A DNA stretch of 64,000 nucleotides from Bacteroidia bacterium (GTDB lineage: Bacteria; Bacteroidota; Bacteroidia; B-17B0; Aurantibacillaceae), in NCBI GenBank assembly GCA_044360115.1, contig JBIKKW010000001.1, forward strand, positions 6,123 through 70,122, in the 5' to 3' direction. Numbering within the stretch: the first letter of the stretch is position 1; the number at the start of each line of letters is the position of its first letter. Under the pieces are notes generated by a model, which saw only the letters and a list, made by a program, of their open reading frames with translations, searched no databases and was not told the origin of the DNA. The translations under genes and the position numbers were made by a program. Of this stretch, positions 34,962-44,864 are shown in pieces.

Positions 34962-35273
34962 CTAATTCTTTAAATTGCTTAATAAATCGGTGTCAATGCT
35001 CTTCACATTTCTGTAAATCATACTTAATATGGCCAAACCAACCGCTACTTCCGCGGCCGCCACTGCCATAATAAAGAACACAAATACTTGTCCTTTTGCA
35101 TCGTTATGCAAAGTGCTGAACGATACTAATAATAGATTAACCGCGTTCAACATCAATTCAATACACATGAAAATGATGATGGAGTTGCGACGAGCCATAA
35201 CGCCAATTGAACCTATTATAAAAAGGATCGCGCTAAGCAAAATGTAATAGTTTATTGAAATTCCGTTGATCAT
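34962..35273 (-). CDS. nuoK: NADH-quinone oxidoreductase subunit K
   Basis: [22 protein letters not shown]. Confidence 0.97.
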
Positions 35274-35294
35274 CTTTTATTTACAATTTTATTT

Positions 35295-35694
35295 ATTTAC
35301 AATTGACAATTTTTGTTTCTCATTTATTATTTCTTTTAGCTGTTATTGCAGAGGCAGCGAATATTCTTTCTAACTCTCTAGACTCTTTTAATAACAACTC
35401 AAATTTTGCGTCTTCAATTTTATTGTATTCTTTTATTAGTTCAAGCCAATAAACAGATTCATCCGACTCCTCTTCAACAATTTTTAATTTATTGATAAAA
35501 TCCGCACTTGATTTCGCTTTACATGCCGCTCTGTAATTAGCTCCCACAGAAGTTGCAGACCTCATCACTTGCCTTCCCATTATTTCATTTGCCGATGATT
35601 TCTTTAATACATCAATTGTTTTTAATGTGTTGATGGCAAATTCAAATGTTCTCTTTTTTAATATTTCAGGTGTTAAAGTCATTCAATTGTAAAT
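35295..35694. repeat. Perfect 12-bp inverted arms (ATTTACAATTGA at 35295-35306, TCAATTGTAAAT at 35683-35694) within 7-nt repeat arrays flanking the four-helix-bundle gene
   Basis: Read directly from sequence; further TTACAAT/TGACAAT-type units lie on both sides. Confidence 0.85.
35320..35682 (-). CDS. Four-helix-bundle protein (TIGR02436 / 23S rRNA IVS-protein / Avd-like)
   Basis: RQVMRSATSVGANYRAACKAKSSADFINKLKIVEEESDESVYWLEL signature. Confidence 0.93.
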   Translation of the reverse strand: MTLTPEILKKRTFEFAINTLKTIDVLKKSSANEIMGRQVMRSATSVGANYRAACKAKSSADFINKLKIVEEESDESVYWLELIKEYNKIEDAKFELLLKESRELERIFAASAITAKRNNK

Positions 35695-35724
35695 CGTCAA
35701 TTCTTCTTAATTTGTCAATCTGAG

Positions 35725-36237
35725 TTATTTCGTTTCTTTTTTACCAATTAAAATTGCTCCTACCAAGGCCGCTAACAATAATACTGAAGCGATCTCGAAT
35801 GGGAATAAAAAGTCTTTGAATAATACTTTACCCAAATTCTTAACTAAACCAATTTGCGGTGAACCATATACCGTTAACGATAATTGTTCTGAACCTTTTA
35901 ATGATCCTACCAATACAAATAACATTAAGCCACCGGCAACTGCTGCAATGATCTTGGTAAGCCATGTTTTTTGGGGCTCACTATCTTCATTTAAATTCAT
36001 TAACATGATAATGAAGAGGAAGAGAACCATGATAGCGCCTGCGTAAACAACTATGTGTACAATTGCCAAAAACTGCGCGTTCATTAATAAATAATGTCCG
36101 GCAATACAGAAAAAAGTTAACACCAAATACAATACGCTGTTTACCGGGTTACGGCTAAACACCACTAATAATCCAAACATGATCGCAAGGAAGGAAAGTA
36201 TCCCGAATAGCCATTGCGTTATTGTGTATCCTAACAT
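35725..36237 (-). CDS. nuoJ: NADH-quinone oxidoreductase subunit J
   Basis: VYAGAIMVLFLF, FPFEIASVLLLAALVGA. Confidence 0.96.
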   Translation of the reverse strand: MLGYTITQWLFGILSFLAIMFGLLVVFSRNPVNSVLYLVLTFFCIAGHYLLMNAQFLAIVHIVVYAGAIMVLFLFIIMLMNLNEDSEPQKTWLTKIIAAVAGGLMLFVLVGSLKGSEQLSLTVYGSPQIGLVKNLGKVLFKDFLFPFEIASVLLLAALVGAILIGKKETK

Positions 36238-36244
36238 ATTTTTT

Positions 36245-36303
36245 ATTTACGATTTAAATATTTACGATTTACAATTGTCGATTGTAAATTTAAAATTGTC
36301 AAT
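36245..36303. repeat. Head-to-head 7-nt repeat array (gene-less copy of the four-helix cassette arms)
   Basis: ATTTACGAT twice, then ATTTACAATTG+TCGATTGTAAAT (36267-36289), then ATTGTCAAT. Confidence 0.8.
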
Positions 36304-36307
36304 TATT

Positions 36308-36916: not shown

Positions 36917-37028
36917 TTGTTTTTTATTAAATCACTGAAATAATTGCGATCAGTATAAGCGCCCAAACTTCAGTCGCTTCGCCGATCTTATTAATCATAC
37001 TTATTATTTTTATTCCTTTATTCATGTA

Positions 37029-41297: not shown

Positions 41298-41318
41298 ATC
41301 AATGTTTTTTTATCCTTT

Positions 41319-41358
41319 GTCTCACTTCGACTCCTTCGCCGCGGCGAACAGTGTGACG
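41319..41358. repeat. CGTC-tagged REP-like palindrome with internal perfect 14-bp palindrome
   Basis: GTCTCACTTCGACTCC-TTCGCCGCGGCGAA-CAGTGTGACG. Confidence 0.7.
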
Positions 41359-41381
41359 GCTAAATGACTTTCAATTAATAA

Positions 41382-44775: not shown

Positions 44776-44864
44776 GTTTTCTTCATTTAAAATAAGACTG
44801 TAAGATTAACGATTTTTATGTAAATCATCAAGTCTTACAGCCTATTTTTTTAAAATAAAGAAAA

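Follow-up and report, generated by a model that had tools for sequence, protein, structure and literature searches.

A four-helix-bundle gene between inverted heptamer arrays at the nuoJ–nuoK junction of a Bacteroidia bacterium

To our knowledge, the intervening sequences (IVSs) of 23S rRNA have gone without an explanation for more than 30 years, the heptamer repeats of bacterial spacers are also unexplained, and no function is known to us for genes of the TIGR02436/PF05635 family. In Coxiella, the IVS contains an open reading frame (ORF) of the PF05635 family that was reported as decaying and probably not expressed; tandem heptamers precede its ATG, and RNase III cuts within a 28-bp terminal stem (PMC4990558). 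GGGNATC heptamer arrays of Xanthomonas and Nostoc are enriched between co-oriented ORFs, are transcribed and have been read as G-quadruplex formers; no gene family was linked to them (PMC4692102). Here we describe a PF05635/TIGR02436 gene in a 64,000-nucleotide stretch of DNA from a Bacteroidia bacterium (assembly GCA_044360115.1, contig JBIKKW010000001.1, positions 6,123 to 70,122 of the forward strand; the whole stretch is hereafter called the window). The gene and the inverted heptamer arrays on its two sides form one cassette, which fills the 451-bp gap between nuoJ and nuoK within the nuo (complex I) operon, and site-by-site comparison of this locus shows that gene and arrays are one unit. 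With moderate confidence we read the unit as an IVS-type hairpin cassette, whose arrays would be read by its own protein, and which would be exchanged as a whole spacer and decay to hairpins.

Arms and protein of the nuoJ–nuoK cassette

The initial annotation described a four-helix gene that splits nuoJ from nuoK, and Pfam profiles on all three genes, with a TIGR profile on the four-helix gene, agree with it. The cassette starts directly 3' of the nuoJ stop codon and ends 1 nt before the nuoK ATG, with spacers of 42–46 nt on either side of the ORF. All genes in the cassette neighbourhood of the window are on the minus strand. The annotated perfect 12-bp inverted repeat is present as described: ATTTACAATTGA (35295–35306) is matched by TCAATTGTAAAT (35683–35694), the right half abutting the ATG (CAT on the plus strand, 35680–35682), and the match extends to 17 nt at 82%. 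Its length is above the chance level for AT-rich spacers, as in 5000 shuffles of both spacers no perfect inverted repeat reached 12 bp. The flip in heptamer orientation across the gene is equally evident from the TTKACRAT units, three of which (35280, 35296 and 35303) read on the plus strand and two (35686 and 35693) on the minus strand. In the sense direction, the 5' arm includes the forward units at 35686–35693 and 35693–35700 plus a degenerate unit TTGACAAA; tandem heptamer repeats, TTGACGAT-TTACAAT units, stand 5' of the ATG. The 3' arm includes reverse-complement units ATYGTMAA, which read on the plus strand as TTTACAAT (the first two positions) and TTGACAAT (the third). Of 31 TTKACRAT units in the window, 10 fall in the nuoJ–nuoK spacer pair and the neighbouring nuoI–nuoJ spacer.

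Taken alone, the locus ranks 253rd among the 2433 ORFs of the genome by flank complementarity, which is within the top 10% but calls for caution; its significance rests on the behaviour of the gene family as a class and on arm conservation in orthologous cassettes rather than on the rank of a lone locus. The 5' arm is kept in 10 cassettes orthologous to that of the window (type A), despite saturated synonymous sites. The 3' unit ATTGTAAAT, or its variant ATCGTAAAT/ATCGTCAAT in one case (L133), is kept in 11 of 11 type A cassettes, and the unit also survives in three cassette remnants (L031, L140 and L121).

The encoded protein scores above the curated cut-offs of both PF05635 (58.4 bits against 33.8) and TIGR02436 (77.5 bits against 24). 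An AlphaFold2 model of the 120-aa protein, built on 34 homologues, has four helices and a pLDDT of 96.1. Foldseek aligns the model to 2RLD (BT_0352, TM 0.76–0.81) and 2GSC (XCC0516, TM 0.73–0.78), both of which are also matched by a sequence-profile search with the 120-aa protein, and both of which contain five chains in their crystal entries. A weaker structural match (TM ~0.7) is Avd of diversity-generating retroelements (DGRs; 4DWL/8UB7), to which sequence identity is negligible, at 10–14%. The fold relationship to IVS-type proteins and Avd, proposed from the sequence at the outset, is thus supported, with Avd as the more distant relative. Among 11 type A genes and 7 genes of an alternative cassette type found at the same junction (type B), pN is ~0.15, pS ~0.75–0.77 and dN/dS ~0.07. 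The protein is under strong purifying selection; it is functional and not a decaying passenger.

Features of the nuoJ–nuoK cassette and its surroundings (window coordinates)
Feature	Coordinates	Strand	Remarks
nuoJ (NADH dehydrogenase chain 6)	35725..36237	-	PF00499, E 9.5e-44; upstream flank
5' arm, sense strand CTCAGATTGACAAATTAAGAAGAATTGACGATTTACAATTGA	35683..35724	-	between nuoJ stop codon and four-helix ATG
four-helix-bundle gene, 120 aa, type A cassette gene	35320..35682	-	PF05635 / TIGR02436
3' arm, sense strand GAAACAAAAATTGTCAATTGTAAATAAATAAAATTGTAAATAAAAG	35274..35319	-	between four-helix ORF and nuoK
nuoK (chain 4L)	34962..35273	-	PF00420; downstream flank
solo hairpin without ORF, nuoI–nuoJ spacer	36238..36307	-	TTKACRAT units, 9-bp stem

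Inverted arms across the gene family

Of the nine TIGR02436 genes in the genome, most are preceded by a repeat of their own and followed by the reverse complement of that repeat. The arms are locus-specific, and include AGTATAAGA/TCTTATACT, AATGTGCTAAT/ATTAGCACATT, ATTTCGTG/CACGAAAT and GCAGTGA arrays. Arm scores of the TIGR02436 genes exceed those of the 2424 other ORFs of the genome (Mann–Whitney p = 1e-4). Five of the other copies lie exactly between subunit genes of housekeeping complexes, with copies at hisB–hisH, sufB–sufC, sufE–SUF-associated protein, accB–accC and cysD–cysN. One paralogue, on contig C133, is located behind a tRNA and outside rRNA. Among the congeners examined, the copy number of TIGR02436/PF05635 genes ranges from 0 to 11. 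Thirty-six loci from congeners display the same layout of a gene plus inverted arms, each protein subfamily having its own unit.

The layout also extends far beyond the genus. We assembled 71 homologues of the window protein with 45–60% identity from about eight phyla—Bacteroidota, Verrucomicrobiota, Planctomycetota, Ignavibacteriota, Acidobacteriota, Saccharibacteria, Bacillota and one deltaproteobacterium—including cultured Mucilaginibacter, Roseivirga and Solitalea species. Pairing between the upstream and downstream flanks has a median of 34 within loci versus 18 across loci (p = 3e-17), and exceeds the 95th percentile of the mismatched-locus control in 32 of the 71 homologues. Both flanks show a period of 7: autocorrelation at lag 7 is 0.44 upstream and 0.41 downstream against a baseline of ~0.26, and the signal appears again at lag 14. 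The motifs are distributed asymmetrically, with CGATTT/GATTTA in 37 upstream flanks versus only 6 and 4 downstream flanks, and AAATCG in 44 downstream flanks versus 5 upstream. Forward-upstream/reverse-downstream polarity is found at 23 loci and the opposite polarity at 5. Homologues of as little as 45–55% identity retain the heptamer as well as its polarity, and an Akkermansia homologue of 48% identity has arms nearly the same as those of the window (GATTTACAATTGACAATTTACGATTGACAATTT ... AAAATTGTAAATCGTCAATTGTCAATTGTAAATC). In a set of 107 cassettes, the k-mer similarity of arms is predicted by protein identity (Mantel r = 0.39, 0 of 2000 permutations). Arms taken from different loci of one motif class reach 25 of the 33 points scored by cognate arms. 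Arms are thus general to the family, from the genome of the window through its congeners to about eight phyla, and the concern that other four-helix genes might lack them does not hold.

As synonymous sites are saturated, and selection for pairing only would let the sequence drift, the motif itself is constrained. The constraint on both unit sequence and polarity suggests a sequence-specific reader, most simply the protein of the cassette itself, and lends indirect support to one option of the initial annotation, binding of the arms by the protein.

The arms could also act without any reader. The cassette would then be a purely RNA-level IVS placed in an mRNA: RNase III would cut the stem formed by the arms, the heptamers would be only stem material, and the unit would be immobile; cutting would free the four-helix mRNA, split nuoA–J from nuoK–N and tune stability or stoichiometry. 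The homologous stem of the Coxiella IVS is cut by RNase III (PMC4990558), an RNase III gene (rnc) is present in the genome, and the arms pair in both the minimum free energy and centroid folds of the cassette RNA. Orientation is as such a role would have it, since the upstream neighbour is on the same strand at 94 of 105 loci, and all 18 cassettes at nuoJ–nuoK are co-oriented with nuo; this invariant co-orientation with the host operon, together with the 42–46-nt spacers, also indicates that the cassette is probably expressed by read-through. Complementarity goes beyond a shared motif as well: loci of the same motif class pair at 25 across loci versus 33 within them, leaving a residual locus-specific component (p = 5e-5). 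The stem, however, comprises 12 AU-rich bp closing a 376-nt loop, and is weak in this AT-rich locus, the fold z-score being -0.9 for the cassette and -0.4 for the nuoI–nuoJ solo hairpin, neither of them significant. Mismatches between the arms show no excess of G:U over A:C (46 versus 56 among 1609 aligned positions from 53 cassettes), and the complementarity of some cassettes (L044) is limited to a 4-nt core within the 7-nt unit. Nor would selection for pairing alone maintain the unit sequence and polarity seen across phyla. We consider this explanation unlikely, a purely RNA-stem role being weakly supported, and the option raised in the initial annotation, self-processing or a looping-out of the ORF through pairing of the arms in the mRNA, is not favoured given the weak stem and the lack of a G:U excess.

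Two divergent forms of the cassette were encountered in these comparisons. Very long arrays are present at loci L044 and L054 of two congeners (G022 and G014), where AGTCGGG is repeated more than 10 times upstream and the GACTCAA/GACTAAG units downstream share only the 4-nt complementary core, and where 8-nt AACTTTCN arrays occur; the 3' array runs through the ORF end in both. A homologue from a Candidatus Saccharibacteria metagenome-assembled genome (L166) contains an in-frame stop under translation table 11, which would fit the UGA=Gly code of the Saccharibacteria lineage. The cassette family reaches bacteria of the candidate phyla radiation.

Alleles of the junction and solo hairpins

To follow the junction across relatives, we gathered the nuoI–nuoL region from 73 congeners having nuoK and placed the junction states on a nuoJKL tree of 69 congeners (the type B genome G018 is off the tree). 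A type A orthologue with the same arms, 73–100% identical, is found in 11 genomes. Type B occupies the junction in 7 genomes (six on the tree and G018); its gene is 48–54% identical to type A, and it has the arms AGATTTAAGA / TCTAAAATCT, the 3' one of which overlaps the last codons. The other states are 9 remnants or solo hairpins of 54–188 nt, 1 unrelated gene and 42 spacers of 2–37 nt. At least 14 changes between filled and unfilled states are required on the tree, where the states are no more clustered than shuffled labels. The comparison of filled and empty orthologous junctions thus recovers filled, empty, alternative and decayed alleles, and stable synteny of the gene across the clade is excluded: the states are scattered even among lineages of 97–99% identity.

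The boundaries of the exchanged segment are sharp. In the closest congener, G062, the NuoJ and NuoK proteins are identical to those of the window and the DNA is ~92% identical, yet the cassette is type B; the two sequences part precisely at the stop codon of nuoJ on one side and at the ATG of nuoK on the other. The nuoI–nuoJ hairpin of this congener is also type B, whereas that of the window is type A. Contigs encoding exactly the NuoK of the window have a type A, type B or empty junction. A metagenome contig (L242) that is 97.8–98.9% identical in nuoH, nuoI, nuoJ and nuoK and 96.9% identical in nuoL has an empty nuoJ–nuoK junction (TAAGAAATTATG) and a type B hairpin in the nuoI–nuoJ spacer. 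No imported divergent tract lies beside its junctions, as the mismatches are evenly spread and the nearest are 42–50 nt away. An empty (L245) and a type B contig (L246) are 95.8% identical. Spacers of the empty kind (GAAATT, GATATT) are similar to the ones found in many other congeners, and look like an old allele or the product of exact removal, not of sloppy deletion.

Several junctions preserve decayed or composite forms. In one (L107), a complete type A cassette comes after a type B 5' arm with seven codons of the type B gene and a stop. In another (L031), the ORF is gutted but both of its type A arms are still in place; a third (L105) keeps only a type B arm and ten codons, and three more (L140, L121 and L030) only stubs of the type A 3' arm. 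Across alleles it is the whole spacer that differs, sometimes with the third base of the stop codon. Spacer turnover at nuoJ–nuoK extends down to near-identical lineages. Whole-spacer difference without duplication agrees equally with insertion and with allelic exchange. If old alleles were exchanged through homologous recombination in the flanks, much of the pattern could be explained, but not the first insertions at so many junctions and in so many phyla.

Spacers of the nuo operon in congeners also contain small genes of other kinds: at nuoJ–nuoK in L138 (G080), at nuoK–nuoL in L140 (G043) and at nuoI–nuoJ in L021, L029 and L146. These are SMI1/KNR4-like, glyoxalase-like and lipoprotein-like ORFs, and have no heptamer arms. 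Their presence indicates that nuo-spacer junctions tolerate other inserts too.

Such tolerance would be expected if the four-helix gene were an ordinary accessory gene for a small regulatory or chaperone-like protein, its repeats, of a sort typical of spacers in these genomes, arising by slippage and its patchiness by deletion and homologous recombination. This explanation agrees with the absence of an enzyme and of target duplications, with cassettes about as old as their hosts, and with clean whole-spacer alleles, which are as expected from recombination. But slippage leaves unexplained a reverse-complement downstream array with fixed polarity in many phyla, and the explanation accounts neither for the motif that tracks the protein subfamily nor for the dispersed hairpins of the same motif described below, whose reversed control gives almost no matches; the inserts that are not four-helix genes, moreover, lack such arms. 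We regard an accessory gene with incidental repeats as quite improbable, and return to the IVS-type cassette with its decay products.

Hairpins of the cassette motif also exist without an ORF. The nuoI–nuoJ spacer of the window holds three forward and two reverse TTKACRAT units with the stem ATTTACAAT/ATTGTAAAT, and the hairpin is replaced by another motif type both in L242, with 99% identical flanks, and in G062. Type A solo hairpins are found at three further places on two other contigs of the genome (two on C60 and one on C161), giving a low copy number of about four places. They are present in 32 of 76 congeners, whereas the reversed control pattern has almost no matches. Their occurrence is associated with the type A gene: 9 of 11 genomes with the gene have solo hairpins, compared with 23 of 65 genomes without it (Fisher p = 0.006).

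Other features were noted in the nuo operon. The nuoH–nuoI spacer (window 36917–37028, 112 nt, minus strand) includes a small ORF of ~23–32 aa (MINKIGEATEVWALILIAIISVI...) whose product ends in a hydrophobic tail. Two metagenome contigs of the same gene order have it annotated as a gene of 32 aa; the product may be a small membrane peptide within the nuo operon. An 84-nt spacer of the operon (window 41298–41381) contains a GC-rich palindrome TTCGCCGCGGCGAA, which sets it apart from the AT-rich heptamer hairpins. In the spacer that precedes the first nuo gene (window 44776–44864), an inverted repeat CTGTAAGACTT...AATCTTACAG around GATGATTTACATAAAAATCG may be a regulatory hairpin.

Mobility and comparison with known systems

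The presence of arms resembling terminal inverted repeats (TIRs) raises the possibility of an autonomous DNA transposon or a miniature inverted-repeat transposable element (MITE), where the protein or a recruited host enzyme would cut and paste or copy the unit from one hairpin-forming site to another, as in the repetitive extragenic palindromes (REPs) and their associated tyrosine transposases (RAYTs). TIR-like arrays with fixed inward polarity speak for this possibility, as do the enrichment of solo hairpins in genomes with the cognate gene, the cassette nested in or replacing another (L107), and presence or absence between lineages of 97–99% identity with no imported tract. The 120-aa helical bundle, however, has no nuclease or recombinase motif, target duplications and near-identical copies at two sites are absent, type A genes are confined to one junction, and the arms differ among the paralogues of the genome. 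We consider a transposon of this kind very unlikely. The initial annotation had proposed a minimal mobile cassette without a transposase. The lack of a transposase is borne out by profile searches of the cassette, and the cassette is indeed a discrete unit of gene and arms; strict mobility is not supported, with no enzyme, target duplication or near-identical copy elsewhere.

A number of observations weigh against the IVS-type cassette as we read it, most of them concerning its movement. Profile searches found no transposase, integrase, reverse transcriptase or catalytic domain in or near the cassette, and no target-site duplication separates filled from empty alleles. Type A genes (>=73% identity) occur only at the nuoJ–nuoK junction. 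The p-distances between cassettes (0.14–0.34) are similar to those between host genes (0.15–0.32), the trees are partly congruent, and near-identical cassettes are found neither in distant hosts nor at different sites; since cassette divergence approximates host divergence and no near-identical copies exist elsewhere, nothing has been caught moving. All 12 metagenome contigs encoding exactly the protein of the window have the cassette in the same place, and those with enough sequence reveal no repeat-number variation in the population, the gene and arms being identical or one base different. Paralogues within the genome do not share arms, and a type A-like gene is absent from some genomes that are rich in the hairpins, G080 among them. 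The weakness of the stem reported above belongs here as well. Finally, binding of the arms by the cassette's own protein, although the most likely role, is purely an inference, drawn from the way in which the units keep their sequence and polarity along with the protein subfamily in many phyla.

Several other candidate explanations were examined and rejected. Recent horizontal transfer is contradicted by cassettes as old as their hosts and by the partly congruent trees. An Avd-like role in a DGR does not suit a genome without reverse transcriptase—RVT_1 has no match in the whole genome, which is 95% complete—and a gene whose neighbours are nuoJ and nuoK. A defence or phage origin was rejected because PADLOC and PHROGs profiles give no match at E <= 0.01, so that the gene belongs to no defence or phage family in these collections. 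Rfam finds no rRNA at the locus, which removes an rRNA context. The locus does not qualify as an insertion sequence (IS) or MITE, having no transposase and showing whole-spacer replacement without target duplication, and the analogy to integron cassettes was dropped, as arms are present on both sides, the motif is lineage-specific and there is no integrase nearby.

Small ORFs enclosed by hairpins of a different kind were observed on two other contigs of the genome. On C192 (6947–7232, oriented coordinates), a 94-aa GIY-YIG-like ORF is located between near-identical segments resembling tRNA 3' ends, plus a hairpin (GGTTCGAGCCC...GCAGTGAGAAATCACTGC), and has one of the highest flank-complementarity scores of the genome. 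On C81 (6677–7049, oriented coordinates), a 123-aa endonuclease-like ORF (DUF559/Vsr-like by eye) lies inside hairpins of the CCCCCTTT...AAAGGGGG type.

Under the reading that we favour, the cassette has three parts: a 5' TTKACRAT array, a four-helix gene of a pentamer-forming family with the BT_0352/XCC0516/Avd fold, and a 3' reverse-complement array. Having no evident promoter or enzyme of its own, it would be read through as part of the nuo transcript. Most likely, the protein encoded in the cassette would recognise the heptamer arrays as its cognate sites, in nucleic acid that is single-stranded or folded into a hairpin, and the two arrays could also pair, closing the ORF in a stem. The whole spacer behaves as an exchangeable allele—present, replaced by type B, decayed to hairpins or stubs, or absent—and would spread between related genomes probably largely via homologous recombination in the conserved flanking genes.

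The significance of the locus lies in where such units are found and in what can be asked of them. They occupy junctions between subunit genes of essential complexes (nuoJ–nuoK, hisB–hisH, sufB–sufC, accB–accC and cysD–cysN). That the protein reads the heptamer array of its cassette, be it in RNA or in hairpin DNA, is a testable hypothesis, and cultured carriers for such tests exist: the Mucilaginibacter, Roseivirga and Solitalea species, and Bacteroides thetaiotaomicron with BT_0352. If true, the protein would represent a new class of nucleic-acid-recognition module, and its case would point to a new means by which genes that lack a recombinase can maintain themselves in core operons. More tentatively, and as a conjecture that we think possible rather than probable, PF05635 pentamers in general could be sequence-specific readers of 7-nt arrays. 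Each lineage with its arrays would then be a minimal, enzyme-less element that colonises rRNA helices and cistron boundaries, spawns satellite hairpins, and is swapped, nested or erased at its arms; the 23S rRNA IVSs, part of the heptamer repeats and the four-helix genes of Bacteroidota, cyanobacteria and others would form one system, with Avd as a domesticated relative.

In full-text searches of the literature, the paper on the Coxiella IVS (PMC4990558) was the only one to combine a gene of this family with a stem and with heptamers, and no description of PF05635 cassettes at operon junctions was found. The suggestion of an undescribed system has to be qualified, because an ORF-bearing 23S IVS with heptamers is already in print. 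The 23S rRNA IVSs (Coxiella burnetii S23p, Leptospira) are similar to the cassette in many respects: a PF05635 ORF, enclosing inverted repeats, heptamers 5' of the ATG, a size of ~430–450 nt, sense insertion in a transcribed conserved cluster, sporadic distribution, and the existence of ORF-less hairpin versions, comparable to the Salmonella-type IVS. They differ in location, since the cassette is at a cistron junction and not in helix 25 or 45, in the length of the stem (12 bp, as opposed to 28 bp in Coxiella), and in the state of the protein, which is under strong purifying selection here while the Coxiella ORF was reported as decaying. As the cassette is not located in rRNA, it is not of the rRNA-IVS class in the strict sense.

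The other described systems share fewer properties with the cassette. REP/RAYT systems (REPINs) likewise have a gene flanked by an inverted short motif, dispersed ORF-less hairpins of the same motif, lineage specificity of the motif, and chromosomal, largely vertical inheritance. The RAYT, however, is an HUH/Y1 (IS200/IS605-like) transposase of known chemistry, whereas the cassette protein is a helical bundle without a catalytic motif; the hairpin copy number is tiny, and the arms are arrays with a period of 7–8 nt, not single palindromes. Avd (4DWL, 8UB7) shares the four-helix-bundle fold and belongs to a pentamer-forming family, and acts as a nucleic-acid-binding partner in a ribonucleoprotein; the cassette differs in its genome without reverse transcriptase, the lack of template and variable repeats, and the low identity to Avd. 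The bacterial heptamer simple repeats (PMC4692102) are comparable in their tandem 7-nt units, co-oriented ORFs, transcription and lineage-specific units, but the units of the cassette are AT-rich, occur as inverted pairs and bracket a specific gene. We class the locus as an IVS-type cassette in an mRNA operon; it is not an Avd, a RAYT, an IS or a MITE.

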